Below are positions 4,912 through 63,504 of a stretch of DNA of 64,000 nt, in pieces (within the stretch, counting starts at the first letter, position 1; each line of letters starts with the position of its first letter). The stretch is from assembly GCA_044868145.1 (NCBI GenBank), contig JBIOWE010000004.1:9395-73394 (forward strand), read 5' to 3'. The translations under genes and the position numbers were made by a program. The notes under the pieces were generated by a model. That model did no database searches. It had not been told where the DNA came from and worked only from the letters and a program-made list of their open reading frames with translations. This DNA is from Patescibacteria group bacterium. Lineage in GTDB: Bacteria; Patescibacteriota; Patescibacteriia; UBA10025; JBIOWE01.

Positions 4912-4922
4912 ACTGTTATTTC

Positions 4923-5360
4923 TTATGTGAGACGAGAGATGATACGATGCTCAAGCTTTTGCATGCGTTTCTCCGCGCGGCTTCCATGATGGTCATAACC
5001 AAGCAGGTGCACAATACCATGAACTATTAAACTGTTCAACGCATTTCCGTACGACAGGTCGTTCTTGCGCGCATAGGTTCTGATTTCGGCTGTACAAAGC
5101 AGGACCTCTCCGAGAAAATTTTCTTGCTCATGAGGGAATGACAACCGACCAGAAGCGGAAGAAAACGATAAAACCGTAGTTGACCGTCGTTTGCCGCGGT
5201 ACCGTGCATTCAAACGTTTCATTGTTGATGGGGAAACGAATGCAAACGTAACCAGTGCGTGACGCAAACGTGGTGCAACATCTCCGGCGACGCGCATAAT
5301 TTTTTTTATTCCCTCTCGAGGAGCGCGCCCGCCTGAACTGTTATGAATTTCAAAAGGCAT
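4923..5360 (-). CDS. ybeY: rRNA maturation endoribonuclease YbeY
   Basis: HGIVHLLGYDH zinc-binding motif. 145 aa. Confidence 0.85.
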   Translation of the reverse strand: MPFEIHNSSGGRAPREGIKKIMRVAGDVAPRLRHALVTFAFVSPSTMKRLNARYRGKRRSTTVLSFSSASGRLSFPHEQENFLGEVLLCTAEIRTYARKNDLSYGNALNSLIVHGIVHLLGYDHHGSRAEKRMQKLEHRIISRLT

Positions 5361-6446: not shown

Positions 6447-6568
6447 AAGTAAAGTAAAAAGTAAAAACTAAAAAGGAAAAATTAACTTTTATTTTACCAC
6501 CACGAATCGAGTATCACGAATCCACACGAATCTCACGCTCGAAAAATTAGTGAAAATTAGTGGAGGGT

Positions 6569-7138
6569 TTATAATTTTTCTTTTTCGCGATTCAAGTCAA
6601 GCAATAATCCGGGGCCGGCCGGGTTGGTGCCCGCCTGAACCTCGCTCCCATCCTTAACACCGTCGCCATCCGTATCACTCACCAGAGGGTTTGTATTATA
6701 CACGCGCACTTCGTCGCGATCAAAAAGCCCGTCGCTATCCGAATCAGGAAGATTCGGATTTGTTCCAAGCGACGCCTCTTCTTCATCGGTGAGTCCGTCA
6801 CCGTCCGCATCATCCCCTTTTGACGAAGCCGACGGCACCATGACATTCGTATTCTCTGCGGCAATATTCGCAACGGTATTCGTGCTTGATGGCGTGCTAC
6901 GCTTATTAAAGAAATTAACAACTGCAAACGCGGCAGCGCCAAGGACGATAAGGACAATCAAAATAGTCACGACCGTACGTAACGGAAACGTCGTTCTCCC
7001 TTCTGGGGCAAGTGGCATCGCCGATTTAACCGCACGCCTCTGCGGAACAGGCGATGGTTTTTGAACCTGTGGGGATGGCTTGTTCTCCGAACTTGCGTCG
7101 GAAAAAATATCTTCTACCTTTTCACGGTTGTTCGCCAT
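6569..7138 (-). CDS. Membrane-anchored protein with three thrombospondin-type-3-like repeats (DADGDGLTDEEE, DSDSDGLFDRDE, DTDGDGVKDGSE); function unknown
   Basis: MANN N-terminus, like the paralog downstream. Single TM, then a predicted extracellular acidic repeat domain. Confidence 0.6.
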   Translation of the reverse strand: MANNREKVEDIFSDASSENKPSPQVQKPSPVPQRRAVKSAMPLAPEGRTTFPLRTVVTILIVLIVLGAAAFAVVNFFNKRSTPSSTNTVANIAAENTNVMVPSASSKGDDADGDGLTDEEEASLGTNPNLPDSDSDGLFDRDEVRVYNTNPLVSDTDGDGVKDGSEVQAGTNPAGPGLLLDLNREKEKL

Positions 7139-7203
7139 AGTGGTTTAGTCAAAGTTGAGAGTAAACAAAATTGAGGCTCCTCCATGCATCAGAATCCCAG
7201 GCG

Positions 7204-10200
7204 CTATGTCGGAGGAGGGATAAAACATGTTACACTGTTTGCTTTACAAACATTGGTGCCTTCTGTTCTACAGCAGTATTCGGTCGAAAGATTGCAACCA
7301 GTGCTGGACGAGTACGGGGGCGAGTAATGGAATGCGCAATGACGCAGCGTAAGTTGTACATTCGGCGAATTAGCGAAGTTGCCTGCGCGGTCATACGCCC
7401 GTACTTGATTTATATAGGTGCCATCGCCGTAGAAATCCGTCGGCCAGAAATACTCGTATGGCGGCGCGCCGAACGAAATGGTCCACACAAGGCTGCCATC
7501 TTGGCGGAACTCCACAACACTCACTCCGGACCCGCTATCAGACGCTGTTGCTTGGATGGTCACGTCGCTATCACTTGTCGATGGCCACGTGGCGTTGGTA
7601 CCGCCGCCGACGATTCCGCCGTTCAATGCAATTGCGTTATACCAAACGGCGGTGAAATCTACCGCAGGAGCTACCGTATCGAGCGTTATCGTATCAGTGG
7701 CTGTGGCGCTTATATGTTGCGGGCTCGCGTTATCACGTACTTGGGCATAAACGGTTTTCGTTCCATCACCCGCCGGTAGTGTCCAGCTGGCTGTCGCCGC
7801 ATACGCTATCCACGCGGACCAGGTCGTACCATCATTCGAGAAGCGCATATCCACCAAGCCATTATCGTCTGTAGCAGAAATGTTCAAAGTGACATTTTGT
7901 GAATTCGTATACTGCGCGCCGCCGTTAATGGAGAACGAAGTGATGTTTGGCGGCGAGTCAACTGGATTATTCACGGTGACATTGATCAATGTCCCACCAG
8001 TCCTGCCAGCATTATCGCGCGCGGTCGCGACCAATGAATGATTTCCGTTACCCGTAGTCAGGGTATTCCACGTCATTTTGAACGTCGTCGGCGGCGTTTG
8101 CGCGTCTGAACCGATTGGCGTAATAAAATCTCGGAATGTCACGGTTGTCGGGTTTGTGGTATTGGCAACGCTGACTTCGAGCTGGACGCTTCCAACCAAC
8201 GTAGCGCCATTTGTCGGGGTAACAAACGTAACGGCCAGGTTATTTACGACGCTTACGTCAACGTAATCGGAGCCAACGTTACCGCCGCCATCGGTCGCGC
8301 TGAGCGTAATGCGGTAGGATCCATCAGGAATGCCGCTGGTGTCCCACGTAACGTTGCAATTAGCAAACCGTGTGCCTGGGCCGAAGGGTGGTGTGGGAGG
8401 GCAGCTGAACGACGCCACAATTGCCGCATTGATACTATTGATGTCTACGATCGTAATGTCCATACGCGAGAGGCCCAGATCGTCCGTCGCGTGCGTGTTA
8501 ATGGCAACAGACCCGTACACGGTCGCACCATCAGCGGGCGCGTCAATGAACGCTTGTGGGACAATAAGGTCCTTAATATTCTCTACGCGCAGAGATTCCG
8601 ATATTTCGGTGAAGTTGCCTGCTGCATCGTAGGCGCGGGCGCGGAGCGTTTTCCAGCCGTTCGCATAACTGGTTGTTTGCCAGGCCCACGACCATCCGCC
8701 AGCAGCGTTATTGTCCTCATATTCCACCTGGAAGCCGAGAAGAAACTTCACGCTCACAACCGCATTATTATCAGTCGCGGTTACGCCAATCGTTTGTGTA
8801 CCCGAGACTGTGTCGCCGTCCCTCGGTGGAGGAATAAACTGCACGTTAGACGGAGGTGTCGTATCGTTTATAGCATTTTGCGTTGTGACGTTCACCGGAT
8901 TTGAGGTTGTTTGATTGACTGTATCGTACGCGCGGGCAGTGAGCACATGGTTACCATTAGCCACAAGAGCAGTGTTAAAGAGCCATGACCACCCATCCGC
9001 ACCGTTCAGATCAGTATTTTTGATTACGCCGTCAAGGAGAAAATCAACTTTGACCACTGCCTCATTGTCAGCTGCGTTCGCTGTCACGGTTGTATTGCCA
9101 GTCAGGTTTGCGCCATTTGTTGGGCTGGCTATGGAAATTGATGGCGGCACAACATCCGGATTGCTGACGGTCACATGAATAATTTTTTGTCCAATATTCG
9201 CATAATCGTCATACGCGATTGCTTTTAATTCGTGCACACCATTTGTGAATGTGGTCGTGTTCCAGTTGCCGCTGCAGTTTGTCACACCGTTCACATTCGT
9301 ACAGTTTATAAACTGTACGCCGTCGATTTGCAATTCAAGAATAATGACCTTATTTCTATCTGTCGCATAGGCTTCAAACTTCACGACATTCCCGGACACG
9401 ACTTCATTATCTGATGGGAACGTAATAAACACGGACGGCGGACTATTGTCCGGATTAGTGTTATTGATGTTTTTTGACTGAATCCTGACACTTTGATTAC
9501 CCACAGTATCATACGCGAGGATTTTGACCTCATGACTGCCGTCAGCGAATTGTCTGCTGTTCCATTGCCATGTCCAGCCGTTCGATCCGTCCGTATCAGT
9601 GGACTGCCGAATGCCGTCGAGGTAAAACTCAACGCGAGCCACACCGCTTGGCGCATCCGTTACGCTCGCCGTAACGGTGATTGTGCCAGAGGACCCGGAG
9701 AATGTGACGCTGGAGATAATCGGACCCGAACGGTCAGCCGCGCTTCCGACAACGCCAACAGTGTAATTAAAGCAGCCACATGACGACGGCGAGGTACACG
9801 GATTATATGATCCATACGAACCAACCCGCCATTGCGCGCCACCGTACTCAAGGTTCGCGTATAAATTAGCATCATCACCATTGTTACGCGCCTCATACAA
9901 ATAGAGATGAGATCCGGCGGAGCACTGGAAATTCTTATCGCCCTCCCGCCAGCACGCCTTCTGATCGAAGTCTGCTGGGCATGAGCTGAACGCGTTGAGC
10001 GGATCGCTTGCCATGGACCGGCCGAGCGTCTTTCCGAGCGTCTCTTGCCACGACGGCCAGCGTGAGGTGCTTAACCCGGCTATATACGTACCGCCACCGA
10101 GCGTCGGGAACGCGCCGTTCTTCGATTTGTGCACAAGCAAAGCGAGGTAGAGGTCGTACAAATCTTGTACGCGCTTCGCGTCTCGGCGAATCGCCAGTTG

Positions 10201-35439: not shown

Positions 35440-36303
35440 CTATTTCGTAAGTTTGCCGATAAGGTCATTCAGTTCCTCTTCAGTATAGTATTCTACCACA
35501 ATCTCCCCTTTTTGTCCTTTTTTGCGGATATAGACTTTTGTCCCCAACGCTTCGCGCAGGCGTTCTTCACGAGCTTGCGTCGGCGCATCAGTCGGCTGCG
35601 GCGCTGCTCCTTGCTTTCGCCGATGGATTCTCGCGCGTTCTTCCAAAACGCGCACGCTCAAGTTGCCGCGCAACACGTCGTTGAAATGCCGCGCCATCGT
35701 TTGTCGGTCCTGGAATCCCAAAAGCACCTTCGCGTGTCCCTCGGTAATCCGGCCCTCCACAAGGGCTTTCTGAATTTCCTCGGGAAGCGTCAGCAACCGC
35801 AAACTGTTTGTCACCGCTGCCCTGCTTTGGCCGACCTTCTTGCCCACTTCTTCCTGGGTCAAATTAAACTCCTCGTGCAAGCGCTTGTAACCCCACGCAC
35901 GCTCAAGCGGGTTCAGGTCTCGCCGTTGAACATTCTCCACAAGCGCAAGCTCAAGTTTCTCCTGCTCAGATGCGCTTCGAATCACCACGGGCACTTTCGC
36001 CAGTCCGAGCTTACGGCTGGCGCGCAAACGGCGTTCACCCGAAATGAGCTGATATCCCATTGGAGTCTGCGTCACAATGAGCGGCTGGAGAATGCCGTGC
36101 TGTTTGATGGACTGGGTAAGATCCTCGAGACTAAAATCGTCAAACTCCTTCCGGGGCTGATGCGGGTTCGTCTGAATCTTATTGACTTCTACTTCAAGAA
36201 TTCGATCAGACGGTCCAAGAATTTCTTCTTTACCTACAATGGTTTTATCGATTTTTGTCGGAATCAAAGCCGCAAGGCCACGGCCAAGAGTTGTCTTCGT
36301 CAT
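35440..36303 (-). CDS. parB: Chromosome partitioning protein ParB/Spo0J
   Basis: GILQPLIV...LISGERRLRAS ParB box. 4-nt overlap with parA. Confidence 0.9.
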   Translation of the reverse strand: MTKTTLGRGLAALIPTKIDKTIVGKEEILGPSDRILEVEVNKIQTNPHQPRKEFDDFSLEDLTQSIKQHGILQPLIVTQTPMGYQLISGERRLRASRKLGLAKVPVVIRSASEQEKLELALVENVQRRDLNPLERAWGYKRLHEEFNLTQEEVGKKVGQSRAAVTNSLRLLTLPEEIQKALVEGRITEGHAKVLLGFQDRQTMARHFNDVLRGNLSVRVLEERARIHRRKQGAAPQPTDAPTQAREERLREALGTKVYIRKKGQKGEIVVEYYTEEELNDLIGKLTK

Positions 36304-37073
36304 GGGGTTTTCTGATGAAAATGCAGGATTTCGTGGGCGAGCCGCTCATACGCTTTCGCGCCTGGAGAGTGCTTATCATAGTGGAGAATCGGCTTGCCGA
36401 AACTGGGCGCCTCCGCCAATTTCGTGGAACGAGGTACAACCACGCGAAAAATCTTATGCGGAAAATATTGATAGAGCTCATGAAAAACGTCCTGCGACAA
36501 TCTGACGCGCTCGTCATACATGGTCATCACCGCGCCGAGAATTGCGAGGTCTTCATGCAAGTTTTGTTTAATTAAATCAATGGTGCCTAACAGCTGGCCG
36601 AGGCCTTCAAGCGCGAGGTATTCTGTTTGAATAGGGATAAGAACTTCGTCGGACGCGACCAAACTATTGATAGTTAAAAGGCCGAGCGACGGCGGGCAAT
36701 CAATAATAACATAGTCATGTTCATCCCGCGCATTTTTCAGTGCTTCCCTGAGTCTGTACTCGCGTTTATCGAGATTCACCAGCTCCACGTTTGCTCCAGC
36801 AAGATCAACCGTGGCTGGCGCAAGTTTCAAACGATCTACTCCCGTGGACTGAACAATGTCGCTTATCGGTACGCCGAGCACAAGTGGATGATAAATGCCC
36901 TGCGCAATTTTTCGATATTCAACACCCAGGCTCGATGAGGCGTTTGCCTGCGGATCCATATCAACAAGCAACACCTGTTTGCCGTGGTGAGCAAGGTATG
37001 CGGAAAGATTAATTGCCGTCGTCGTCTTTCCCACGCCGCCCTTCTGGTTCACGATTGCGATGACACGCCCCAT
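36300..37073 (-). CDS. parA: Chromosome partitioning ATPase ParA/Soj
   Basis: IAIVNQKGGVGKTTTAINL deviant Walker A motif. Confidence 0.95.
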   Translation of the reverse strand: MGRVIAIVNQKGGVGKTTTAINLSAYLAHHGKQVLLVDMDPQANASSSLGVEYRKIAQGIYHPLVLGVPISDIVQSTGVDRLKLAPATVDLAGANVELVNLDKREYRLREALKNARDEHDYVIIDCPPSLGLLTINSLVASDEVLIPIQTEYLALEGLGQLLGTIDLIKQNLHEDLAILGAVMTMYDERVRLSQDVFHELYQYFPHKIFRVVVPRSTKLAEAPSFGKPILHYDKHSPGAKAYERLAHEILHFHQKTP

Positions 37074-38209: not shown

Positions 38210-38995
38210 CTATCCGTCAACCGATCTGCGCCGCCGCCATAGAACAACGGCGGCCAACACGATCGCTATGCACGCCCATTGCGCCACGCTCAACGGGCCA
38301 AGACTCTCTGGATTGATGCGAAGAAAATCCAGTGTGAATCGAATGACGGCATAGCCAGCGAAGTACCAGAGGAACACTCGGCCCTGCAAGTTGACATTTT
38401 TCTTAAAGAACACAAGTAAAAGAAAAAACAAGGCGAGGTCCAATACCGATTCGTACAAAAAGAGCGGGTGGAAAAAGCTCTGCAGTTCGTATGTTGATGG
38501 CCGATGCGCAATATCAATAGGAATGCCCCACGCGCCGTTCGTGGGCAGCCCAAATAATTCTTGATTGAAATAATTCCCCCACCTGCCAATCGCCTGCGCT
38601 AATGGTGCGCCAAGCGCCATAATGTCCCCAAGCACCCAAAACGAGAGCTTTCGAACGCGCACATAAACAGTAAGCCCAAACAAAGAACCAAGAAATACCC
38701 CAAAGAGCGAAAGCCCTCCTTGCCAGACGTATAATATCCGTATGGGGTCGTCGCGATAATATGGCCATTCGAAAAGTACGTGAACCACCCTTCCGGCGAC
38801 AATACCCAGCGCAGGCAAAAGCAAGAAAAGATTGTACACATGATCAGATGATGTCTGTTTTTTCTTTGCCGCCCAAAGCGCCATTGCCAAACCGGCGAGC
38901 GTCGCGACGATAATCAGCACGCCATACCACGAAATCGAAAACGAACCGAAAGTAAGAAAGGTCGGCGCTGGAATAAAACTATGTAAAACATTCAT
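38210..38995 (-). CDS. lgt: Prolipoprotein diacylglyceryl transferase
   Basis: Lgt signature region GRVVHVLFEWPYY..., G...GRWGNYFNQELFG, polytopic membrane profile. Confidence 0.9.
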   Translation of the reverse strand: MNVLHSFIPAPTFLTFGSFSISWYGVLIIVATLAGLAMALWAAKKKQTSSDHVYNLFLLLPALGIVAGRVVHVLFEWPYYRDDPIRILYVWQGGLSLFGVFLGSLFGLTVYVRVRKLSFWVLGDIMALGAPLAQAIGRWGNYFNQELFGLPTNGAWGIPIDIAHRPSTYELQSFFHPLFLYESVLDLALFFLLLVFFKKNVNLQGRVFLWYFAGYAVIRFTLDFLRINPESLGPLSVAQWACIAIVLAAVVLWRRRRSVDG

Positions 38996-39007: not shown

Positions 39008-39751
39008 CTAGAGTAGGCTGTCAATGACTTGCTTAAACGACTCTAAGGGCAGCGCCCCAAAGATCAGCTTACCATTCACAAACGTTGCTGGCGTCCCGTT
39101 CACTCCGAACTGCGAGCCTTCGGCAAAATCAGTTTGCACTTTTTGCGCGAACTCTCCGTCATCAAGACAAGAGGAGAACTTTGAACTATCAACACCAACT
39201 TCTTTTGCCCATTGCTTTAAATTGTCGAAGCTAAGCTGTAGCTGGTTTTGAAACAGCAAATCATGGTATTCCCAAAATTTACTTTCGCCAGCGAGGCTCG
39301 CCACGCACTCAGACGCTTCCGCGGATTTCTGCGCCATCGGATGGATGGACGAGAGCGGAAAGTGGCGGTACACAAGCTTTACTTGGCCTTCATATTGCTC
39401 AAGTATCTGGAGAAGCGTCGGCGCAATCTTTTGACAGTAGGGGCATTGAAAATCCGCATATTCAACAAGAGTAATGGATGCGTTAATGTCACCACGAACA
39501 TGGTCGACGGCGCGCAACCGTATATCTACTGGCTGCGATGGTGTAGGATTTGTCCCCGTACCGGCGACTGTTCCCGACGTGGTCGCGGTGTTGGTTTCGG
39601 ACGCGTGTGTACCTACTCCCATATCAAATGTCAAAAATAAAACGAGCGATACAAGGCTCATAAGGGAAAGACCGACCAGCACGCCCATCACGAATGATGC
39701 TTTTGGAGTTGCGTAAAATCCCTTGGGTGGTTCGTTCGTTTGTTCCTGCAT
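39008..39751 (-). CDS. DsbA-family thiol:disulfide oxidoreductase, membrane-anchored (CPYC active site)
   Basis: N-terminal TM anchor. FQCPYCQKIAPTLLQI thioredoxin-fold CxxC motif. Confidence 0.8.
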   Translation of the reverse strand: MQEQTNEPPKGFYATPKASFVMGVLVGLSLMSLVSLVLFLTFDMGVGTHASETNTATTSGTVAGTGTNPTPSQPVDIRLRAVDHVRGDINASITLVEYADFQCPYCQKIAPTLLQILEQYEGQVKLVYRHFPLSSIHPMAQKSAEASECVASLAGESKFWEYHDLLFQNQLQLSFDNLKQWAKEVGVDSSKFSSCLDDGEFAQKVQTDFAEGSQFGVNGTPATFVNGKLIFGALPLESFKQVIDSLL

Positions 39752-39786
39752 AGTAAAATAAGCTGCCTGCGAGGAATGCGCGCTTG

Positions 39787-40587
39787 TTACTGCCCCAGCG
39801 CGCGGTCAATCAGCAGTGTAAAATATTCCGACGGGATAACGCCAGCATACTTTGTATTGTTGATGAAAAATGTGGGGGTACCGGTTGCACCGGCGAGCAC
39901 CGCATCGTCAAAATCCTGCTGAATCTCCGCCTGGTATTTCTCGGAATCAAGGCATTGGTTAAATTGATTCATATCAAGGCCGATTTGCTCAGCGTACGCT
40001 TTCAGGGCTGCAAGAGACAAATTATTCTGATTGATGAATATCTTGTCGTGCATCTCCCAAAACTTTCCTTGCTCATGGCTGCATTCAGCCGCTTCGGCGG
40101 CATTCAGGGCGTCCGGATGGCTATCTACGTTGGGAAAGTCGCGGTATTGAAACTTGATCCGGTTACCGTACTTTTGAATGATTTCGCGAACAATGGGAAA
40201 CGCCTGCAAACAATACGGGCATTGGAAGTCGGAAAATTCTACAATGACAACGGCGGCGTCCGCCGCTCCGACGTACGGGTCGTCCGAGCTCTCAATAGTC
40301 GCCGTACCCATGATTTGGACGTTGTTTGTGTTGATGAACGTCTGTCCACCTAGATTTAAATTTCCGGTTCGGATATTCTGGATGACCAGGGCGGCAAAAA
40401 ACGCGACGACAACAAGAAGTCCGATGCCAAACACAATGAGAATACCAAGCCACCACCGACGCGTGTGCCGGTACATGGGCTGTGGTGGATGTTGATCTAT
40501 CTCGTTCATGTTCTTATGCCTCCCTATTATATGGAATGGCCGCATGATTGACAAATACGCAACATTTGATAGCATCAGTATCAACAA
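39787..40587 (-). CDS. DsbA-family thiol:disulfide oxidoreductase, membrane-anchored (CPYC)
   Basis: FQCPYCLQAFPIVREI motif. Paralog of the neighbouring genes. Confidence 0.8.
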   Translation of the reverse strand: MLILMLSNVAYLSIMRPFHIIGRHKNMNEIDQHPPQPMYRHTRRWWLGILIVFGIGLLVVVAFFAALVIQNIRTGNLNLGGQTFINTNNVQIMGTATIESSDDPYVGAADAAVVIVEFSDFQCPYCLQAFPIVREIIQKYGNRIKFQYRDFPNVDSHPDALNAAEAAECSHEQGKFWEMHDKIFINQNNLSLAALKAYAEQIGLDMNQFNQCLDSEKYQAEIQQDFDDAVLAGATGTPTFFINNTKYAGVIPSEYFTLLIDRALGQ

Positions 40588-40598
40588 AGGGAGGTACG

Positions 40599-40859
40599 AT
40601 GTTCTTTAAACTTCTAAGAATGCTCGTCATTTTTGCGCCGTGCGTTGGCACATATTTTCTTGCGAACTGGGCAATTCAGCACTATCTATTGCCCTGGTTG
40701 TTCTGGAACGTCCTGAAGTCTGCCCTATCGTATGAAAGCAGGGTTGTCCTCGCAATCATGGTATTCTACGTTGAGGTAATCCTTGCCGCCAATCTTGTTG
40801 ATCGTACGCTATTCAGCAAACCAAAACAAAAGCCGCAACGACTGCAAAAGGCTACGTGA
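40599..40859 (+). CDS. Small membrane protein of about 86 aa; hypothetical
   Basis: ATG preceded by AAAGGGAGG. Two or three TM helices. Followed by a clean terminator (feature 40872..40899). Confidence 0.45.
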   Translation: MFFKLLRMLVIFAPCVGTYFLANWAIQHYLLPWLFWNVLKSALSYESRVVLAIMVFYVEVILAANLVDRTLFSKPKQKPQRLQKAT

Positions 40860-40974: not shown

Positions 40975-41259
40975 ATGCTCTTTAGAATAATTTCGGCAGT
41001 GCTAGGTTTTACGTTCGTATCTTCACTTTCCGCATGGTCGAAGGTTAGTGCCGGGGGTCAAACGACTCACGTGCTTTCCAAGTGGGAAGCATTCGCTCCA
41101 ATGATCATTCTCTTGGTCTGCGTGCTAGCCTTACTCGTGTGGGTTGGATTGTGGCAAAAGCGTAATACGCGTAAGCCAGGCCCTGGGGATACCGCGCGGT
41201 TCCCTCACTGCGACTGCCCCGAAGGTAATCCCGAAAAGGGAGATTTGAATAAACACTGA
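40975..41259 (+). CDS. Small secreted/membrane protein of about 94 aa; hypothetical
   Basis: ATG preceded by AAAAGGAGGGAG. N-terminal signal-like helix plus a second TM. Followed by a perfect terminator (feature 41254..41277). Confidence 0.45.
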   Translation: MLFRIISAVLGFTFVSSLSAWSKVSAGGQTTHVLSKWEAFAPMIILLVCVLALLVWVGLWQKRNTRKPGPGDTARFPHCDCPEGNPEKGDLNKH

Positions 41260-41277
41260 CCCACGGTCAGTGTTTTT
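41254..41277 (+). terminator. Rho-independent terminator (CACTGACCcacGGTCAGTG + T5)
   Basis: Perfect 8-bp stem and U-tract. Confidence 0.75.
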
Positions 41278-41336: not shown

Positions 41337-42323
41337 TTATATGCTATTGTTTTGGGAGGGTTGTCTCGGTTTTCTTTTTCTTCTTACAAGAACAAAGAAA
41401 ATTGCGATAGCGATAAACGCTGGCATAAACCAATCGGTGAAGTGTTGAGACCAGAGTAATACTTTTTGACTCGCCTGAAAATAAACATCAATCAATCCGG
41501 CTTTCGTGAGAAATCCAAAAAATGAATTTGTTCCATTGGAAAGAATAAAGATGAACCCGAGCAGGAAAAAAAGAGTTGCAGCGATCAGATTCGTCGAATG
41601 AACATGGAGCTCTTTTCCGCCGATACTGAATGTCCAAAGCTTGCCACGCAGTAGCCCGCGTTCATGGGTTTTGAATCTGTCGAAAAAGTACGCGAGAATA
41701 AAAAGCGGAAGCGCAAGCCCGAGACTGTAGACAACCAGTAAAAGGCTTGATTGGAAAGGATTTGCGTATGTGCTCGCCAGCGTAATAATCGCACCAATGA
41801 TCGGTGCTGTGCATGTGCCGGCAGCAAATCCTGTTGTGATTCCCAGTAAGTACACGGAGCCGAAGCTTTGTTTGTTACTTTGGATTCGCAGGAACGAAGG
41901 AAGAAACGAAAAGGATTTTTCGAACAGGAGCATAAGGCCAAATATAAAAAATAAGATGCCGGCGATAACAAACAGAGTGCCCTGATAGTTGATGAAAATC
42001 TTTGCGACGAGTGATGCGGAAAACCCAAGCGGCACATAGACCGTGACGAGTCCCAGAAAAAAGACAAATGTCATTTCAACAAGCCTACGGCGTTCTTTGA
42101 ACGCGTACGCAAAAAAAGCTGGTAGAAGAGCTGCTGAACATGGCGAAAGAAGCGCGAGGAATCCTCCGATCAATGCGGCGAAGAGAGAAACATGAATCGG
42201 CAATGCTCCCGTGTTCCCAACTCGCAAAACCGGCGTCGTGAGTATAACAATGCCTACCGTCAACAGAGCAGTAATCGCGATAAAAAAGACAAGTGGTGAT
42301 GGCTTGAAATTCGTTTGATCCAT
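41337..42323 (-). CDS. ccdA: Cytochrome c biogenesis / disulfide electron-transfer membrane protein, CcdA/DsbD family
   Basis: Polytopic. Conserved Cys in TM1 (LLSPCSAALLPAFFAY) and a second Cys (AGTCTAPIIGAI), typical of the DsbD core. Confidence 0.8.
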   Translation of the reverse strand: MDQTNFKPSPLVFFIAITALLTVGIVILTTPVLRVGNTGALPIHVSLFAALIGGFLALLSPCSAALLPAFFAYAFKERRRLVEMTFVFFLGLVTVYVPLGFSASLVAKIFINYQGTLFVIAGILFFIFGLMLLFEKSFSFLPSFLRIQSNKQSFGSVYLLGITTGFAAGTCTAPIIGAIITLASTYANPFQSSLLLVVYSLGLALPLFILAYFFDRFKTHERGLLRGKLWTFSIGGKELHVHSTNLIAATLFFLLGFIFILSNGTNSFFGFLTKAGLIDVYFQASQKVLLWSQHFTDWFMPAFIAIAIFFVLVRRKRKPRQPSQNNSI

Positions 42324-42419
42324 AGCGTCAGTATACCAAAATTCACGGCTTCCGAAGAAAACCGTGAATCGTGAGAGAGTCTGTTACGTTTACCTTAGCA
42401 TGAACGACCACGTGAATCT

Positions 42420-43220
42420 CTATGCGGAAAGCGCCTGATCAATAATCTGCTTCATTGTCGCGAATGGGTATGCTCCGGGAATAATCTGTGCTTTCCCGTT
42501 TTTATCAACAATGATCGTTCCTGGTGTGCCAGTGATGCCTGCGGTTGTACCGTCATTCAAGTCGCTGCTCACGACCGACGCCATTTCACCGCTATCGAGA
42601 CAGTCTTGGAACTTGGTCTGGCTTACCCCAATCTCTTTTGCAAGTGGCCCTAGGTCCGTAAGTGCAAAGCCAGTGCCGTTTGAGGTTGTGCGCTCGAATA
42701 TTTTGTCATGGAATTGCCAGAATGCGTCTTCACCGCTAAGCTTTGCAACGCATTCAGATGCTTCCGCTTCTTTCTGGGCATTTGCATGAAACGATAAAGG
42801 GAAATGGCGATAAACCAAACGCACTTTGTCCTTGTAATCAGTTAAGATTTGGGCAGTCGTCGGAGCAAATTGCTTACAGAATGGACACTCAAAGTCGGAA
42901 TATTCAATCAGTGTGACGCTGGCGTTCTTGTTGCCGCGTACGTGGTCGTCGTTGCCGACAGCGCGGTATTGCCCCGCTGCCTGTGTAAGAGAGTTACCCG
43001 TCCCTGAAGTGTTTGTCGTCGTTGTGGTGGTTGTACCGGTCGTGTTGATCTTGGTTGACGCGGTCGATGGATTTCTCAAAAGCGTCAACCCAAGGACAAG
43101 CGCGACAATGCTCATCACGGTGAGTCCGGCGAGGCTGCCCATAACAAAGGCGGCCTTCGGCGACATGGAAAAGTCCCTGGCTAGGTTGACCTTTTTCTCT
43201 TCTTTCTGTTGTTCTTCCAT
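42420..43220 (-). CDS. DsbA-family thiol:disulfide oxidoreductase, membrane-anchored (CPFC)
   Basis: FECPFCKQFAPTTAQILTDY motif. Thr-rich linker after the TM anchor. Confidence 0.8.
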   Translation of the reverse strand: MEEQQKEEKKVNLARDFSMSPKAAFVMGSLAGLTVMSIVALVLGLTLLRNPSTASTKINTTGTTTTTTTNTSGTGNSLTQAAGQYRAVGNDDHVRGNKNASVTLIEYSDFECPFCKQFAPTTAQILTDYKDKVRLVYRHFPLSFHANAQKEAEASECVAKLSGEDAFWQFHDKIFERTTSNGTGFALTDLGPLAKEIGVSQTKFQDCLDSGEMASVVSSDLNDGTTAGITGTPGTIIVDKNGKAQIIPGAYPFATMKQIIDQALSA

Positions 43221-43245
43221 AAAAATACGTTAATAGTGATAATAA

Positions 43246-44271
43246 TTATTTTGTTTGACAAGTATAGTTTGAGGAATATGCATGCGTCATTGTTTGATCA
43301 ACGCTCTGACTCTGGACTGACGCGGGCGATTGGTTCCGCATCGGGCACAGGAGCAGCTCCGAGGAAAAAGGGACGCGCTCACCATCATGCGTGAATGCAA
43401 AGATGGCGTTACTTTGCACCATAAACAATCCAACAATGACTATGACCGCAGCTATGGCAACCGGAACACGTTTTCGAAAATGGCTGGATGGTACATGGCC
43501 GCTCAGTAGTTGTTGAACGCGCAGTTCTGTTGTCGATAAAAACGGTATAGGTACGTTGCTCCCGCGCTGCTTTCTGCCGAGAAGTTTCAAAAGCGCGCTG
43601 CCGAGAAATCGCGGTTCGCGGAAAGACTGCGTCGCATATTCATCAGCGGCAAGCTCTAACGTGTGTTTGAAGTCTTGGACCGTACGGTCTATAAAAGGAA
43701 CTAAGAAAAACATTTGAGCGGCGGCATGAGCAAAAAACAATCTGAGAGGGTCCCGATCAAGCAAGTGTCTTTTTTCATGAAGCAAAATTGTTTTTAATTC
43801 ATTCGGGGATACGGATCGTACGAACGCTGACGATACGTAAATGCGGGGCTTGAGTAAACCGGCGCAGAACACATGCATGGTATTCTGCGAAAGTTCAAAC
43901 ACCTTTTTGTTGAGCGCAGTGGCTAGAATTGCTTGGCTGAGCTTCTTTGATGGCTTGCGTAGAGCAAACCGATGTGTGTCGCTGAACCGATACACGCCTA
44001 GTAATTCTCGAATAACTGCGGCAATAAGCAAAACGAAAAATATGCTCGACAGAAGAAAAAGCGCAAACATTGTTCCGGCGGCAAATGGATGTTCGGAAAA
44101 AAAGGAAATCTGTGTAGCGCACGTGCAGGTGCCCTGACCTTCCTGCAGAACCTTGTATCCATTCATCATAACCGGCAGCGTCTTCCAAAAAATCAAACCA
44201 AAGAAACTAATGGTTGCAAATAGCATTGCAGTGAGTCCGAAAAAAAGAAAATGCGCATTTCGACGGTACAT
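43246..44271 (-). CDS. M56-family (BlaR1/MecR1-like) membrane zinc metalloprotease lacking a C-terminal penicillin-binding sensor domain
   Basis: HEKRHLLDRD (HExxH) followed by ELAADEYA, in a four-TM N-terminal arrangement. 341 aa. Directly downstream of the BlaI-family repressor. Confidence 0.7.
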   Translation of the reverse strand: MYRRNAHFLFFGLTAMLFATISFFGLIFWKTLPVMMNGYKVLQEGQGTCTCATQISFFSEHPFAAGTMFALFLLSSIFFVLLIAAVIRELLGVYRFSDTHRFALRKPSKKLSQAILATALNKKVFELSQNTMHVFCAGLLKPRIYVSSAFVRSVSPNELKTILLHEKRHLLDRDPLRLFFAHAAAQMFFLVPFIDRTVQDFKHTLELAADEYATQSFREPRFLGSALLKLLGRKQRGSNVPIPFLSTTELRVQQLLSGHVPSSHFRKRVPVAIAAVIVIVGLFMVQSNAIFAFTHDGERVPFSSELLLCPMRNQSPASVQSQSVDQTMTHAYSSNYTCQTK

Positions 44272-44274
44272 AGA

Positions 44275-44664
44275 CTATGTTTTTTTGAATTTTACTTTCA
44301 ACTTCTCAAGCAAACGGGGGTCAATTTCTTCAAGTGTATCAACGAACTGTACAATCGCGACATCACCATAGACTCTTCGTAAATCTTGCAAAAGCTGGCG
44401 CGATGCGCGTTTGAAAAATTCTTCGCGATCATACAGCGAGGAATAAGAGTACGTATTGTCCGTTTTCTTCCGGGTCAAGACTTTTTTCGCAAACAAGCGA
44501 TCCATGATCGTCATTATGGTCGTGTACGCATACGAACGCTTCTTCTGCAGTGCCTCAAACACGTCACGAACCGTTACGGATTCATGGTCCCAAACCACGT
44601 TCATGACCTCGCGTTCGAGATCTCCGAGTATTTGTAATCGCGCTTTATTTACGTTGAATCGCAT
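44275..44664 (-). CDS. BlaI/MecI/CopY family transcriptional repressor
   Basis: 129 aa winged-helix protein: ...VMNVVWDHESVTVRDVFEAL...YAYTTIMTIMDRLFAKKVLTRKK. Confidence 0.85.
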   Translation of the reverse strand: MRFNVNKARLQILGDLEREVMNVVWDHESVTVRDVFEALQKKRSYAYTTIMTIMDRLFAKKVLTRKKTDNTYSYSSLYDREEFFKRASRQLLQDLRRVYGDVAIVQFVDTLEEIDPRLLEKLKVKFKKT

Positions 44665-44710
44665 AGCTACTATACAGTGTAGTAGGGATTGAGTAATGAG
44701 TCAAATCAGT

Positions 44711-44757
44711 TATCCACAACGTAAAATCCGCCTCCTCGGCGGATCACGTTGTGTACA
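44711..44757. promoter_or_regulatory. Candidate operator upstream of the BlaI-family gene: inverted repeat CCACAACGT ... ACGTTGTGT (with a TGTACA end) enclosing a second GC palindrome ATCCGCCtcctcGGCGGAT
   Basis: Nested palindromes 55-100 nt upstream of the repressor start codon. BlaI/CopY operators are TACA/TGTA-type palindromes. Confidence 0.35.
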
Positions 44758-44780
44758 AAAAATGCGCTGCCAGGCGCAGT
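44755..44780 (-). terminator. Rho-independent terminator for the ferredoxin gene (TGCGCctggcaGCGCA + T6 on the minus strand)
   Basis: Hairpin plus U-tract read on the minus strand. Confidence 0.65.
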
Positions 44781-45032: not shown

Positions 45033-45173
45033 ACTAAAGATAGTGTACGGGATTTTTTGATGATTGTCCAGCGCACCGCACAGATAAACTGTGCGCTGGG
45101 ATAAAAACTAACCCAATGCACAGCTTGACTGTGCGTTGGGTTGTGGCAGTAAAATAAAAAAAGCCCCCGTTTT

Positions 45174-58536: not shown

Positions 58537-60969
58537 TTATACTCGCTGTTTCCTTAACCGTAATGCATTCCCAATCACAGAAACAGAACTAAAACTCATG
58601 GCAGCGGCAGCAATCATGGGGCTGAGGAGTAACCCAAACGCAGGGTAGAGAACACCGGCAGCAATAGGCACGCCAATTGTATTGTAAATGAATGCGAAGA
58701 AAAGATTCTGTCGAATATTACGCATCGTTGCCCGACTAAGTTTGATGGCACGAACAATCCCTCGCAGATCGCCTTTCACGAGCGTCACACCTGCGCTTTC
58801 CATGGCTATGTCAGTCCCGGTACCCATGGCAATGCCGACCTGCGCTTGCGCTAATGCTGGCGCATCATTGATGCCATCCCCAGCCATTACAACAATGCGC
58901 CCCTGTGTTTGAAGTCCTTTAATGATGTTTGCTTTTTGATCCGGCAAGACTTCTGCCCGCACCTCATCAATGCCCAATTCCTTGGCTACAGCTTCAGCCG
59001 TAGTCTTGTTGTCGCCAGTCAGCATCACAATTTTAATACCTTCTCGGTGAAGTTGCTGTACTGCTTCTGGAGTAGTTTTCTTGATAGGATCCATGACGCC
59101 AAGAAGTGCAACTATTCTCCCGTTGGCCACAACAAACATGACCGTCTGACCCTTCGCTCGTAATGGGTCTGCCTGGCTTGCTGAAGTATGAGTCCCGAGT
59201 TTCAGGTCACTCAGGAGAGAAGCGTTTCCAAGTGCGACTGATACGCCATCAACCGTGCCAGTTACACCTTTGCCTGTTTTTGACGAAAAGTTCGATGCTG
59301 GTGAGAGCTGGATTTTTCGTTGCAATGCTCCAGCCACAATTGCTGCTGCCAATGGGTGCTCACTTCCGCGTTCAAGGCTAGCTGCAAGCTTCAGGACATT
59401 ATTTTCTTTTATTTCAGCCACTGCGACTACACTGACAAGTTTTGGCTTCCCTTCAGTGAGCGTGCCAGTTTTATCGACCACGAGAGTGTTTACCGTACGA
59501 AGTACCTCAATGGCTTCGGCATCCTTGAATAGGACGCCGATGGTTGCACCTTTTCCAGCCGCAACCATGATTGACATCGGGGTAGCTAATCCCAGCGCAC
59601 ACGGACAAGCAATGATGAGAACGGCCACCGCATTAATAATGCCGTAGGCCATGCGTGGTTCTGGTCCAACAATTGCCCAGACAATAAACGAAGCGAAGGC
59701 AATGACGACAACGGTTGGAACGAAATATCTCGAGACACGATCTGCCAGCTTTTGAATCGGCGCCCGACTGCGTTGTGCCTGCGCGACCATCTGGACGATG
59801 CGTGCCAGCAATGTATCAGTACCCACCTTTTCTGCTTGCATAACCAAGCTAGCGGTTCCATTGATGGTTCCACCAATAACACGGCCATCAACATGTTTCT
59901 CCGAGGGAATCGGTTCTCCGGTGACCATCGATTCATCGACGGCGCTTTGTCCTTCAACGACTTTTCCGTCGACTGGAATCTTTTCACCAGGCCGCACGCG
60001 GAGTCGATCACCAACCTTAACCTGATCAAGCGAAACATCTTCTTCGAGTCCGCTTTGATCAATGCGGCGTGCAGTTTTTGGCGCCAACCCAAGGAGTGAA
60101 CGAATAGCCGAACTCGTTCGGCTTCTGGCGCGAAGCTCAAGTACCTGTCCAAGCAGGACCAGGGTAACGATTACGGCAGCGGCTTCAAAGTAAGTTCCGA
60201 CTCGTCCGTGCGAATCTCGGAAAGTTGTAGGAAAAATATCTGGCACAAAAACAGCTAAAACACTAAAAAGATATGCCACAGACACACCAAGCGCAATAAG
60301 GGTAAACATGTTTGGACTGCGGTTCACCATTGATTGCCAACCTCGTACAAAAAATGGCCAACCGCCCCAGAGGACAACCGGAGTCGCCAGGAGTAACTCC
60401 AACCAGGCCATGAGGTTGGGCGTTATTAACTTTTCAAGTGGCTGCCCCGGAATGAGTCCACTCATGACAATAATGAGAAGCGGAACAGTGAAGGCCACCC
60501 CATACCAAAAGCGACGACTCATGTCGACGAGCTCGGGATTCTCCGGCTCTTCAAGGCTCACGGTGCGTGGCTCGAGCGCCATACCGCAGATCGGGCAAGT
60601 CCCAGGCGCATCGCGTACAATTTCCGGGTGCATGGGGCAAACCCATTCTGTCTTATGCACTGGGGCTACTGGCTCCATTGGTTTCAGTGCCATGCCGCAT
60701 TTCGGACAACTGCCTGGGTCTTGTTGTTTAACTTCTGGATCCATCGGACAAGTATACGCTGCCCCGTTTCCTCCTTGTGCTTCCGACTCTTTTTTTGCTT
60801 CTGATCTAGCGACAGCTCTTTTGAGAAAACGCTCAGGATCAGCGTGAAATCGTTTTAGACAACGCGCGGAACAGAAAAAGTACTGCTGGCGTTTGTATGC
60901 CCATGTATGTTTCGTATCTGATTGGACGGTCATGCCACAGACCGGATCAATGTGAGTCGTCGTGGTCAT
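58537..60969 (-). CDS. copA: Copper-translocating P1B-type ATPase with N-terminal YHS/TRASH-like and two CPMxPE metal-binding modules
   Basis: DKTGTLT phosphorylation site, CPC transmembrane metal site ([12 protein letters not shown]), GDGINDAP hinge. N-terminal DPVCGMTV...YFFCSARC plus YTCPMDPE and WVCPMHPE modules. Confidence 0.9.
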
Positions 60970-60971
60970 AG

Positions 60972-61529
60972 TTATTCGAATTGCAATTCAATCTTATCTT
61001 TGTCTTGCATCATGTATTGATCAAACTCCGTATTCGGCTGCCCATTGACTGTCATCGTCAATCGCCCGTCAGTTCCGTTACATGAGTCTAATAAACAAGT
61101 AGCTGAAAACTGCTTTCCCCAGGCCTTAAAGAATTGACCTAGTCGGATATCATTTTTCGTTACTCGGCCTTGCATTTCGAGATGGATGGTGGGCAAATCT
61201 TCATGGGTATGGATGGGCCCATGAACAGCGCCCAGGCCGATGTTCTGGGGGATTGTCTCTTCCTTTCCCTTGACGGTAATCGTAAGCTGCGGGTGCCAAT
61301 GCAATCCATTTCTTGATACAATATCCGATTCCGGAGTTGGCGAATGTGAGGCTGCTTGCCAGACGAGCCAACCGATCCCTCCTCCGATCAGTAGAATTAC
61401 CAATGCCCAAAGGCTTACGCGCTTTATTTTCCGACTAGTATTTGTGCGGTTGCGGTCGGCTTCTTTTTCTTGTTTATGCCGGAGCCGGCGTTGGTGCTTG
61501 GTCAGGTGCTCTTCAGGTACTTGATCCAT
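60972..61529 (-). CDS. Membrane-anchored hypothetical protein with a His-rich extracytoplasmic segment ([11 protein letters not shown]); in the cop operon
   Basis: Basic N-terminal tail, one TM. Co-directional with copA and 2 nt from it. Confidence 0.5.
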
Positions 61530-61540
61530 GATCTAGAATG

Positions 61541-61759
61541 TTAGTTAGTCTCGACCGGCTCAACCGGATACCCTTCGGCATCGAGCACCTCCTTAAGCTT
61601 CATCGGGTTGACCGATTCCTCGTGTTCCACTTTTAATGTCTGTTTCATTGAACTGACCTCGGCCTTTTTCACGCCAGGAGTATTTTCGCAAATTCCTTCC
61701 ATCTCCATGGCGCAGGACAGGCATTCAAGATCGACGATTCGAAATGTGGTTGTGGGCAT
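61541..61759 (-). CDS. copZ: HMA-domain metallochaperone (CopZ-like), atypical ECLSC metal-binding motif
   Basis: 72 aa ferredoxin-like HMA pattern (...VDLECLSCAMEMEGICENTPGVKKAEV...). Confidence 0.7.
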   Translation of the reverse strand: MPTTTFRIVDLECLSCAMEMEGICENTPGVKKAEVSSMKQTLKVEHEESVNPMKLKEVLDAEGYPVEPVETN

Positions 61760-61760
61760 A

Positions 61761-62777
61761 TTACACTGCGTTAATCGTGCCAGAAAACATACCCATGCCG
61801 CAGGTGAATGTATACTTTCCTGGCTGCGGGAAGGTTACGGCAACCGTGGTCGTCGAACGTGATGCGACTTGTTGTTGGATACCTAGTTTCGGGATACGGA
61901 AAATACTGGTACACCCTAACTGACCCTTCGCGACCAGGCTCAATTGGACTTCTTTACCGGTGGGCACGGTAACGGAGTTTGGGGCGTAACCGCTGGTCGA
62001 AACTTCAATCACCGGCCCAGAGTCAGCTGTCTCGGTTGTCCTTGTCGATTCACCTGCACGGCCACCACTCAGAGCCGCACTCCAAGCAGCCTTTTGATTC
62101 TGAAAAGAATACGGGGAGTCAGTAAGGTTCAGGACGCCGTTAAACGTATAGAAACCCAAGGTTATGACAACTGCCGCAGTAACGTACTTCAGTCGCCGTT
62201 GCAGGAGCGTCGAACCTTTAGCGAGAAACCCTACCAAGAAGAACAGTGGCGCTGTGCCAAGAACAAACGCAAACATGATACTAGCGCCTTGCCATGCGCT
62301 ACCAGTGGTTATGGCCGCGACTTCCATCGCCTGGGTCGTACCACAGGGAATAAAAATTGTCAGTAATCCAAGCATGGCTGGAGCGAGTAACGCTTCGCTT
62401 TTGGCGCTCTTGCGCACTAGGCGTCGCAACATCGCCGGAGGAGAGATTTGGAACCAGGGAAGCCATCTTGGCTTCAATAGTCGAATGCCCGTAACAACCA
62501 TGAATAAAGCGGCAAATGACAGTAGCCATATTCTGGCATTAGTGGTCAGTTGGATTTTCTCACCAAGCGACCCAAGGCCAAAACCCAGAAATGAATGAAT
62601 AACTAGCTTGGCGATTAAGAAAGCTGACACCGGCAAAATGAGTCGCTGCCAACCAGACAAGGCCTCATCATCTTTCTGGCGAAGAGCGAGAAGACCAAGT
62701 AATAACCCGCCTTGTACGGCTAGGCATGTAAGTCCACCAGTACTCAGGCCTGTAAGAAATGCGGTGAGTGGATTCAT
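61761..62777 (-). CDS. Polytopic membrane protein (DsbD_2/permease-like, conserved Cys in TMs) fused to a C-terminal cupredoxin-like, Met-rich domain (YTFTCGMGMFSG)
   Basis: About 8 TM helices. C-terminal roughly 100-aa beta-rich segment with Cys/Met ligands. Part of the cop operon. Confidence 0.5.
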   Translation of the reverse strand: MNPLTAFLTGLSTGGLTCLAVQGGLLLGLLALRQKDDEALSGWQRLILPVSAFLIAKLVIHSFLGFGLGSLGEKIQLTTNARIWLLSFAALFMVVTGIRLLKPRWLPWFQISPPAMLRRLVRKSAKSEALLAPAMLGLLTIFIPCGTTQAMEVAAITTGSAWQGASIMFAFVLGTAPLFFLVGFLAKGSTLLQRRLKYVTAAVVITLGFYTFNGVLNLTDSPYSFQNQKAAWSAALSGGRAGESTRTTETADSGPVIEVSTSGYAPNSVTVPTGKEVQLSLVAKGQLGCTSIFRIPKLGIQQQVASRSTTTVAVTFPQPGKYTFTCGMGMFSGTINAV

Positions 62778-63066
62778 GGTTTAGTAAGCGGTTAGATAAT
62801 GATGCGTTCGTTGACAATTTTAAACAATCCTATAAAAGGTTGATTCGAATAGTTTACTTCCCGCCGTACAATTGAGGAATAATGAGAATGGCTCCGAGTA
62901 ATAAGCAGGCCACAATGCTAATTGCTAGCCCGAAAAGAAAGGTCAGTTTTGACGACGCGCCAGCTAGGAGACTTGATGATTTTTTTTGTTGTTCCATCTG
63001 AGAAAAGAAATTAATAATGTAAACAGACCGCTAACCCAAATATAGTGGGAATGAGCGGGAGAAATA

Positions 63067-63504
63067 TTAAACTGAGTACGTTTGCGGCTCTACAACAACG
63101 GCAACATATTGACGTTCAGGAGAGAACTGCCGATACAGGGTATCAAAAAATGCGTGCTGAAATAGTCGCCAGCGTGAGCCAGGCGGAGGACTGAGCGCAG
63201 TTGAAACTGGCTGCGATAGATTCTCCCCGCGACGCGAAAAAGAATGAACGAACAGAAGAGTAAAGAGAAAAAAGCTAACCATGCCAAATAGTTTGCCGTC
63301 GGGAGTAATACCTACAAGGTTTTGGTGCATAGATTGACACGAGGTACTCCCACTCATCATGTTATTACTGCCTACTACCATCGTTGGCACCGCGCTACAC
63401 AAAAAAACACCCGCCAAAACAAAGATAGTCGCTATTTTGAATGTCTTCTTGTGGATATCGTAGGTCATTACTACATAGTATAGTAGACTATGAAGAAATG
63501 TCAA
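63067..63504 (-). CDS. Hypothetical membrane protein of 145 aa
   Basis: Two TM helices. No recognisable motif. Confidence 0.4.
   Translation of the reverse strand: MTFLHSLLYYVVMTYDIHKKTFKIATIFVLAGVFLCSAVPTMVVGSNNMMSGSTSCQSMHQNLVGITPDGKLFGMVSFFLFTLLFVHSFSRRGENLSQPVSTALSPPPGSRWRLFQHAFFDTLYRQFSPERQYVAVVVEPQTYSV

Follow-up and report, generated by a model that had tools for sequence, protein, structure and literature searches.

What does a BlaI/BlaR1-type pair respond to when its membrane protease carries no beta-lactam sensor, and which genes does it control? The question is raised by a locus of a Patescibacteria group bacterium (assembly GCA_044868145.1), in which genes for a BlaI-like repressor (blaI) and an M56 (BlaR1-like) protease stand beside genes for extracytoplasmic thiol-disulfide enzymes (Dsb genes). 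We analyzed a 64,000-nucleotide stretch of contig JBIOWE010000004.1 (positions 9,395 to 73,394), hereafter called the window, and positions are given within it unless the locus of a relative is named. An initial annotation had placed the Dsb locus under the pair. It had overlooked a dyad (O1) that overlaps the −10 box in the blaI promoter and the sole other copy of this dyad in the window (O2), which lies about 19 kb away at a predicted copper-export operon. The reading that we favor, with moderate confidence, is a proteolytic derepression switch similar to PetR/PetP of Synechocystis, which would answer copper or damage to exported thiols, probably with outer-face cysteines of the protease as the sensor.

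A BlaI–M56 pair without a beta-lactam sensor

Both family assignments of the initial annotation passed the Pfam thresholds. The repressor matched PF03965 (Penicillinase_R) with 95.5 bits (cut-off 22.6) over residues 13–123, and the protease matched PF05569 (Peptidase_M56) with 48.6 bits (cut-off 31). Among proteins of solved structure, the top relative of the repressor is Rv1846c from Mycobacterium tuberculosis (2g9w, 4e-13), followed by BlaI and MecI from Staphylococcus aureus. The segment VQ106|F107V of the repressor aligns with the LN|FA/FV scissile region of BlaI/MecI and with VH|FV of Rv1846c, and a cleavage region, ..AIVQ106|F107VD.., is predicted in the C-terminal dimerization helix. 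The top NCBIfam match of the repressor is the CopY/TcrY model TIGR02698, with a score (56.7 bits) below the cut-off of 121.95. The C-terminal CxCx4CxC (or CxC) site of CopY-type proteins for Cu(I)/Zn(II) is absent from its sequence, which contains no cysteine at all. Direct CopY-type copper sensing by the repressor is therefore ruled out, and the signal must arrive via the protease.

The protease has the motifs H165-E-x-x-H169 and E206-LAAD-EYA, as annotated, and residues H165, E166, H169, E206, and D210 are invariant in an alignment of 95 homologs. Its two N-terminal membrane helices are followed by a cytoplasmic gluzincin domain, one further helix, and an outer tail. Only 47 residues remain past the last membrane helix, and the penicillin-binding (class D beta-lactamase-like) sensor domain is absent, in agreement with the initial annotation; the score against the full-length BlaR1 model NF000326 was 26.9 bits (cut-off 400). 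Since a phmmer search of solved structures with the protease gave no match at E-values up to 0.01, a fold search was needed to link it to them. An AlphaFold2 model based on 95 homologs had a predicted local distance difference test (pLDDT) score of 78 overall, with values above 90 in the core and below 50 in the tail. In Foldseek, the top solved matches of this model were S. aureus BlaR1 structures (8exp, 8exs, and 8exr; template modeling (TM) scores of 0.35–0.39), the best being 8exp with an E-value of 2e-5 and a TM-score of just 0.35. The two genes are co-oriented with a gap of 3 nt between the repressor stop and the M56 start, and relatives show the same arrangement. Together, these results support the presence of a BlaI/BlaR1-type module that lacks the beta-lactam sensor.

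A sensor of beta-lactams or cell-wall damage, like BlaR1/MecR1 or the mycobacterial BlaI/BlaR, would be in keeping with the family membership and with the best solved relative of the repressor, which is the M. tuberculosis BlaI. However, the missing penicillin-binding domain speaks against such a function, and neither copy of the operator described below precedes a gene for a beta-lactamase or a penicillin-binding protein. No such gene was present among the open reading frames (ORFs) of the 35.4–64 kb region given to Pfam and NCBIfam, where two ORFs (37.2–45.5 kb) and a 3'-truncated ORF from 63643 had no match or were not submitted. Furthermore, such a domain is missing from approximately 94% of BlaIR-like systems, which are believed to respond to something else (PMC13492132). 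We consider a beta-lactam or cell-wall-damage sensor highly improbable.

Two candidate operators and the genes behind them

The 19-bp dyad O1 (Table 1) is likely the operator for the repressor, judging from its sequence and location. Its core, TACA-N3-TGTA, is similar both to the cop box bound by repressors of this family (TACAnnTGTA) and to the site of PetR (GACA-N3-TGTC). A dyad search of the 64-kb window with up to 3 mismatches returned one further copy, O2, with 0.00–0.03 copies expected. O2 differs from O1 at 4 of 19 positions, and both dyads are in the same register: the −10 hexamer occupies dyad positions 5–10, and the start codon lies 2 nt past O1 and overlaps the last base of O2. The two promoters match in their hexamers and in this register, while their spacers and flanks are dissimilar, which points to selection on function rather than recent duplication. 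Because the −10 box is inside the dyad and the start codon is within 2 nt at both promoters, the regulated transcripts, including that of blaI, would be leaderless or nearly so. Among the blaI genes of 36 loci, 19 have an operator that directly adjoins the annotated start codon.

O2 is followed by six genes that form the predicted copper operon, from a membrane protein with a Met/Cys/His-rich loop (p133) to CopA. Metal stress was among the signals guessed in the initial annotation, and it is now the best-supported of them. No Pfam, NCBIfam, or PDB match was found for p133 or p185. The latter is membrane-anchored and has seven invariant residues in an alignment with its relatives (H77, H79, H107, T108, H109, H116, and E118), and it looks like a member of an undescribed metal-binding family. 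The product of the 47-aa ORF begins with MEQQKK..., an N-terminus similar to the signal anchors of DsbA1 and DsbA3.

The pair might merely regulate itself, with dsbA1 as a passenger, O2 as a chance or vestigial site, and the copper genes under control from outside the window. The four differences between O2 and O1, the weaker palindrome of O2, and the single site in 13 kb of the closest relative would be consistent with this explanation. Against it stand the rarity of an O2-like match in 64 kb and the identical register of O2 on a sigma-70-like promoter that abuts a start codon. In addition, Pfam and NCBIfam searches found no other metal regulator gene at 45–64 kb of the window, and the operator in Actinomycetota precedes p185-CopA (locus L087) and adjoins CopA in several loci. 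Such plain autoregulation therefore seems quite improbable.

Downstream of the pair, profiles and motifs agree with the annotated gene order: a DsbA-like CPFC protein (dsbA1), CcdA, two DsbA-like CPYC proteins (dsbA2 and dsbA3), and lgt, interrupted by two plus-strand membrane ORFs. The proposal that the pair heads the Dsb locus held for dsbA1, which follows the M56 gene after a gap of 25 nt and is likely co-transcribed with blaI and M56, given this spacing. For the remaining genes it found no support, and the pair visibly heads dsbA1 alone. The ccdA gene is located behind a hairpin and a −10-like TGgTATACT, and whether it would be controlled by read-through or by its own promoter is uncertain, whereas dsbA2-dsbA3-lgt has a promoter-like sequence of its own. 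The latter is back-to-back with a second site: 40526–40554 (−) for dsbA2 and 40548–40575 (+), TTGACA-16-TAGCAT with TG, for the plus-strand ORFs, whose 86- and 94-aa products matched no family. ParA-ParB genes are found within approximately 8–9 kb of the pair in both the window (35440–37073) and the closest relative, which belongs to Candidatus Kerfeldbacteria (locus L001, 11338–13044); this proximity may be left over from a syntenic region around the origin of replication.

A nested palindrome upstream of blaI had been proposed as the operator. The palindrome does exist (ACAACGT-N23-ACGTTGT at 44716–44752; a single occurrence in the window, 0.01 expected by chance), but we rejected it as the operator. 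It is positioned 5' of the −35 box, has no second copy in the window, and folds as a 16-bp RNA hairpin beside a T6-run hairpin; the two-hairpin region behind the ferredoxin gene has a minimum free energy of −36 kcal/mol (z = −5.2). The hairpin sequence at this place in the Kerfeldbacteria relative, read by eye, is unrelated. We read the palindrome as a putative second terminator or insulator behind the ferredoxin gene. Just 5' of the ferredoxin promoter (TGGACA-17-TACACT, 45070–45042), two tandem dyads, GCACAG-N5-CTGTGC, are present 40 bp apart at 45079–45133 (arms up to 45069–45143). The window contains no other match to them (0.13 expected), and they constitute a candidate operator for some different regulator.

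Table 1 Features of the BlaI–M56/Dsb locus and the copper operon in the window, and p185 homologs in other loci.
Feature	Position	Strand	Evidence or remark
Intrinsic-terminator-like hairpin, TGCGCC..GCGCA then T6	44763–44778	−	3' of ferredoxin gene
Nested palindrome, strong RNA hairpin	44710–44758 (arms 44710–44722, 44746–44758)	−	Outer ACAACGU/ACGUUGU, inner AUCCGCC/GGCGGAU, then UUUU
blaI promoter, TTGACT-17-TACACT	44676–44704	−	Promoter-like sequence between nested palindrome and blaI start
O1, candidate 19-bp dyad CTACTACACTGTATAGTAG, TACA-N3-TGTA core	44667–44685	−	Overlaps −10 box; ends 2 nt before blaI ATG
blaI, BlaI/MecI/CopY-family winged-helix repressor, 129 aa	44275–44664	−	PF03965
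Sensor-less M56 (BlaR1-like) membrane zinc protease, 341 aa	43246–44271	−	PF05569
dsbA1, DsbA-like membrane-anchored thiol-disulfide oxidoreductase, CPFC	42420–43220	−	Thioredoxin_4 91.6 bits, DSBA 65.7 bits
Hairpin and U-run between dsbA1 and ccdA, 14 bp	42341–42369	−	Possible terminator/attenuator; then −10-like TGgTATACT
ccdA, CcdA/DsbD-type membrane electron transporter (C62, C171)	41337–42323	−	DsbD_TM 47.8 bits
Terminator hairpin closing ccdA, perfect 11-bp	41251–41275	−	Hairpin search and folding
Two small membrane ORFs interrupting the Dsb run	40599–40859, 40975–41259	+	86 and 94 aa
Promoter of dsbA2-dsbA3-lgt, near-consensus TTGTCA-17-TATAAT	40554–40526	−	Promoter-like sequence
dsbA2, CPYC	39787–40509	−	Passes Thioredoxin_4 and DSBA
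dsbA3, CPYC	39008–39751	−	Passes Thioredoxin_4 and DSBA
lgt	38210–38995	−	Passes LGT
O2, candidate dyad CTACTATACTATGTAGTAA	63468–63486	−	Overlaps −10 of TTGACA-16-TATACT (63504–63477); last base is A of first-gene ATG
Predicted copper operon, whole	58537–63468	−	p133, 47-aa ORF, DsbD_2–cupredoxin, CopZ, p185, CopA
p133, 133-aa two-helix membrane protein, Met/Cys/His-rich loop MMSGSTSCQSMHQ	63067–63468	−	First gene of operon
47-aa membrane ORF	62853–62996	−	Second in operon
DsbD_2 and Cupredoxin_1 fusion	61761–62777	−	Pfam
HMA CopZ-like protein	61541–61759	−	Pfam
p185, His-rich exported protein, 185 aa	60972–61529	−	Alignment with invariant His
CopA	58537–60969	−	TIGR01511 617 (cut-off 397)
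p185 homologs	L087 3329–3973 and 9180–9776; L127 3035–3694; L131 711–1373; L114 1976–2623		

Operators, partner genes, and protease cysteines in relatives

The identical protease is recorded once. The next relative is 35% identical and belongs to Candidatus Kerfeldbacteria, with the same blaI–M56 arrangement and a dyad, CTGCTACACTATGTAGTAG, before blaI (L001, 2053–2071), which is the single site in 13 kb. A further 160 loci came from scans of genome and metagenome collections, most of them from Solirubrobacterales and other Actinomycetota; nearly all are from high-GC Actinomycetota, Chloroflexota, and Gemmatimonadota. A single Patescibacteria-like relative was found. With the consensus CTACKACRNNNYGTMGTAG and up to 3 mismatches, there were 354 matches in the first 80 loci and the window, compared with 22–27 in block shuffles. 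When all loci were searched with up to 2 mismatches, the consensus preceded blaI in 58 loci and the M56 gene in 24. Under the same threshold it directly preceded genes for DsbA-like proteins (9 loci), p185 (4), Lgt (3), and CcdA (2) (domains confirmed with Pfam). The p185 loci include the arrangements operator-p185-CopA (L087) and operator-p185-Lgt-CcdA (L127 and L131). A functional link of such pairs to extracytoplasmic thiol-disulfide genes, as suggested in the initial annotation, is supported by these operator positions. Relatives in Chloroflexota and Gemmatimonadota have other half-sites (e.g., TTACG..CGTAA) that are outside the consensus used.

Within 8 kb of the pair, CopA was found in 16 of 161 loci, CcdA in 20, DsbA-like proteins in 17, and Lgt in 8, while the control queries superoxide dismutase and ferredoxin were found in none of the 161. 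As many contigs are short, these neighbor counts are lower bounds. Gene orders vary between loci (operator-dsbA-M56-blaI in L052, M56-blaI-operator-dsbA in L036, and CopA-CcdA-CcdA-blaI-M56-Lgt in L040), suggesting repeated selection for linkage. The co-occurrence of BlaI–M56 pairs with Dsb genes that the initial annotation anticipated is seen in relatives, but the Kerfeldbacteria pair without a Dsb neighbor indicates that this adjacency is frequent and not universal. The conserved gene contexts support a probable coupling of BlaI–M56 pairs to extracytoplasmic thiol-disulfide genes. By the same evidence, copper export, Lgt, and p185 belong to this module, which in the window is split into two loci joined by the candidate operator.

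Several BlaI–M56 pairs per locus were observed in L009, L017, L026, L058, L066, L074, and other Solirubrobacterales. In this order, the operator family is also located before genes for cytochrome bd subunit I, an NAD-binding protein of 500–575 aa, COG4315-like lipoproteins, CopC-CopD fusions, CDF transporters, and M23 peptidases. The Solirubrobacterales pairs seem to form a large multi-paralog signaling system. In L003 and L004 (Thermomicrobiaceae; 4815–8892), a BlaI–M56 pair of another clade is located 2 kb from MerB, an HMA MerA-like reductase, an ArsR/MarR-type regulator, and MerE; a candidate dyad in L003, CTTACGCGCCGTAAG (457–471), has different half-sites.

Two regions of the protease are placed outside the cytoplasm by the positive-inside rule and the helices of the model. 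Outer loop 1 (residues ~30–66) contains M35, M36, C49, and C51, and the outer tail (295–341) contains C309-P-M311, M328, H330, and C338. The Kerfeldbacteria protease likewise has DCGC (CxC) in loop 1 and two cysteines in the tail. Actinobacterial proteases beside CopA, p185, Lgt, or CcdA have a loop-1 motif, LLxAC(R/Q)xxxP, and a second cysteine, often as Cys-Met, just past the next membrane helix. Cysteines were counted by topology and anchored on HExxH, because alignment columns are too noisy in the loops. Among 104 non-redundant proteases, cysteines in both loop 1 and the tail were present in 25 of 27 proteins encoded beside the CopA/p185/Lgt/CcdA module and in 16 of 77 without it (Fisher's exact test, 3e-11, which ignores shared ancestry). 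A tail cysteine is found in approximately 90% of homologs (103/113; 102/104 in another count).

These cysteines could have another meaning. The switch might report the redox state of exported cysteines (failed disulfide formation or oxidants) rather than copper, with the protease cysteines as DsbA substrates. Reduced or mis-oxidized outer cysteines would then activate the protease and feed back on dsbA1, and the copper operon would be co-regulated because copper damages thiols. The location of dsbA1 within the pair's own operon, the DsbA-like genes of relatives that are co-operonic with the pair or preceded by the operator (L052 and L036), and the near-universal tail cysteine are in favor of this explanation. 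On the other hand, the Cys-Cys variants track CopA, p185, Lgt, and CcdA, and only 2 of 13 DsbA-linked proteases are of this type. The second operator heads a copper exporter and not a redox enzyme, and the sole characterized sensor-less pair, PetRP, answers copper. We therefore regard a pure redox sensor as rather unlikely.

The proposed copper switch and its place among known systems

In Synechocystis, PetR is a BlaI-family factor with the operator GACA-N3-TGTC, and it is degraded in the presence of copper, and not otherwise, by PetP, an M48/M56 protease without a sensor domain (Garcia-Canas et al., bioRxiv 10.1101/2020.07.31.226407; PNAS 2021). The pair described here shares with PetR/PetP of Synechocystis sp. 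PCC 6803 a BlaI/CopY-family factor that has no cysteine and no CopY site, a sensor-less M48/M56 protease gene directly downstream, an inverted-repeat operator with 4-nt half-sites and a 3-nt spacer, and candidate metal ligands in a short outer loop. The half-site is GACA in Synechocystis and TACA here, and the ligands are two Met residues there and Cys residues (CxC and C-P-M) here. The targets are petE and petJ there, whereas here the predicted targets are a copper-export operon and a DsbA-like gene in a non-photosynthetic host. Since PetP is missing from the 120 closest proteins listed for the protease, orthology is unlikely. According to a 2023 review, PetRP does not drive copper-homeostasis genes, and the BlaR homologs of heterotrophs are uncharacterized.

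In the switch that we favor, a repressor dimer bound to both dyads would silence blaI-M56-dsbA1 (perhaps with ccdA by read-through) and the copper operon. A rise in extracytoplasmic copper, or the resulting thiol damage, would be registered at C49 and C51 in loop 1 and at C309(-P-M) and C338 in the tail, and the helices in the membrane would relay the change to the zinc site in the cytoplasm (H165, E166, H169, and E206). The activated protease would then cut the repressor near Q106|F107 in the dimerization helix, and both promoters would open. The output would be copper export and protection of exported cysteines, and in relatives also CcdA, Lgt, and the His-rich p185. In published work, copper prevents the acylation of lipoproteins at their lipobox cysteine (PMC6538781), and Dsb-like Scs proteins guard envelope thiols in copper stress (PMC10907172). 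It would therefore make sense for a single regulon to contain Lgt, DsbA, and CcdA.

Several points weigh against this switch. The O1 dyad is absent in the window before ccdA, dsbA2, dsbA3, and lgt even at 4 mismatches; the shared motif that the initial annotation expected at the Dsb promoters (43221–43245, 40588–40598, and 39752–39786) is not there. Therefore, dsbA1 alone is likely under direct control within the window, and the larger part of the Dsb locus shows no sign of being governed by the switch. Moreover, dsbA1 may have a weak promoter of its own (ATGACG-18-TATACT, 43290–43261). O2 is the poorer palindrome (6 of 9 pairs), and within its available 13 kb the closest relative, from Kerfeldbacteria, lacks both Dsb and Cop genes. 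The Solirubrobacterales operator family also precedes genes for cytochrome bd, Rieske, ABC1-kinase, and other proteins, so that the family as a whole is not copper-specific. Regarding the sensor, the tail of the protease is predicted to be disordered, and the association of cysteines with the module is best read as both traits occurring in one subfamily and may mark a single orthologous group. Proteases linked to DsbA alone belong to another subfamily without the loop-1 cysteine, and the cysteines thus cannot explain every Dsb link. Finally, what was observed comprises the family membership, the geometry and conservation of the operator, the makeup of the regulon, and the distribution of cysteines; repressor binding and cleavage, the signal sensed, and the part played by the cysteines are inferred.

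The pair resembles BlaI/BlaR1 and MecI/MecR1 of Staphylococcus and Bacillus in the repressor fold, the TACA/TGTA dyad on its own promoter, the scissile region, the M56 gluzincin domain between membrane helices, and the adjacency of the two genes. It differs from them in having no acyl-enzyme sensor domain, no beta-lactamase or PBP2a target, and two membrane helices before the protease domain instead of three. CopY/TcrY of Firmicutes belong to the same repressor family and have a cop-box-like TACA..TGTA operator and control of CopA/CopZ genes, which is predicted here; however, CopY binds Cu(I) itself via its C-terminal CxCx4CxC, and its operator spacer is 2 nt, compared with 3 nt here. CenI/CenR of Clostridioides difficile and other non-canonical BlaIR systems also combine a BlaR-like protease that has a short, disordered, non-transpeptidase outer C-terminus with a regulon of envelope genes (Kurtz et al. 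2026, PMC13492132). The CenR regulon consists of peptidoglycan hydrolase genes (PMC13492132), whereas the regulon here names a candidate signal. The Scs (ScsABCD) and DsbC/DsbD proteins of Enterobacteria are a functional analogy, with DsbA/DsbG-like and DsbD/CcdA-like proteins deployed together with copper defense (PMC10907172). They are under Cpx/CueR-type control and not under a BlaIR protease switch, and the proteins are not orthologous.

BlaIR-type pairs number approximately 15,000 in InterPro, of which about 6% are able to bind beta-lactams (PMC13492132). It was already known that sensor-less BlaIR systems are the majority and that PetRP is copper-responsive. A non-exhaustive survey of the literature did not find a BlaI/M56 pair described in connection with CopA, DsbA, CcdA, or Lgt. 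More tentatively, we suggest that a subfamily across Patescibacteria-like bacteria and Actinomycetota may use loop-1 and tail cysteines to sense copper or thiol damage, with the operator CTRCTACA-N3-CGTMGTAG. Its regulon of CopA/CopZ, DsbD_2-cupredoxin, DsbA-like proteins, CcdA, the enzyme Lgt, which acylates lipoprotein cysteines, and p185 would serve the protection of exported cysteines.

The locus offers a testable case for an orphan family: the operator is defined, the regulon of two promoters points to copper as the candidate signal, there are four candidate sensing residues, and the partner gene set of DsbA, CcdA, Lgt, p185, and CopA recurs across phyla. If the favored switch is correct, the copper-protease paradigm of PetR/PetP, so far a cofactor switch of cyanobacteria, would also cover the detoxification of copper and the protection of envelope thiols, and raising Lgt and Dsb capacity may be a general response when copper attacks exported cysteines. 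If the subfamily reading is also true, it would provide a signal, a sensing principle, and a regulon for one branch of the approximately 94% of BlaIR systems without a beta-lactam sensor, and it would tie Lgt to copper defense outside Proteobacteria.

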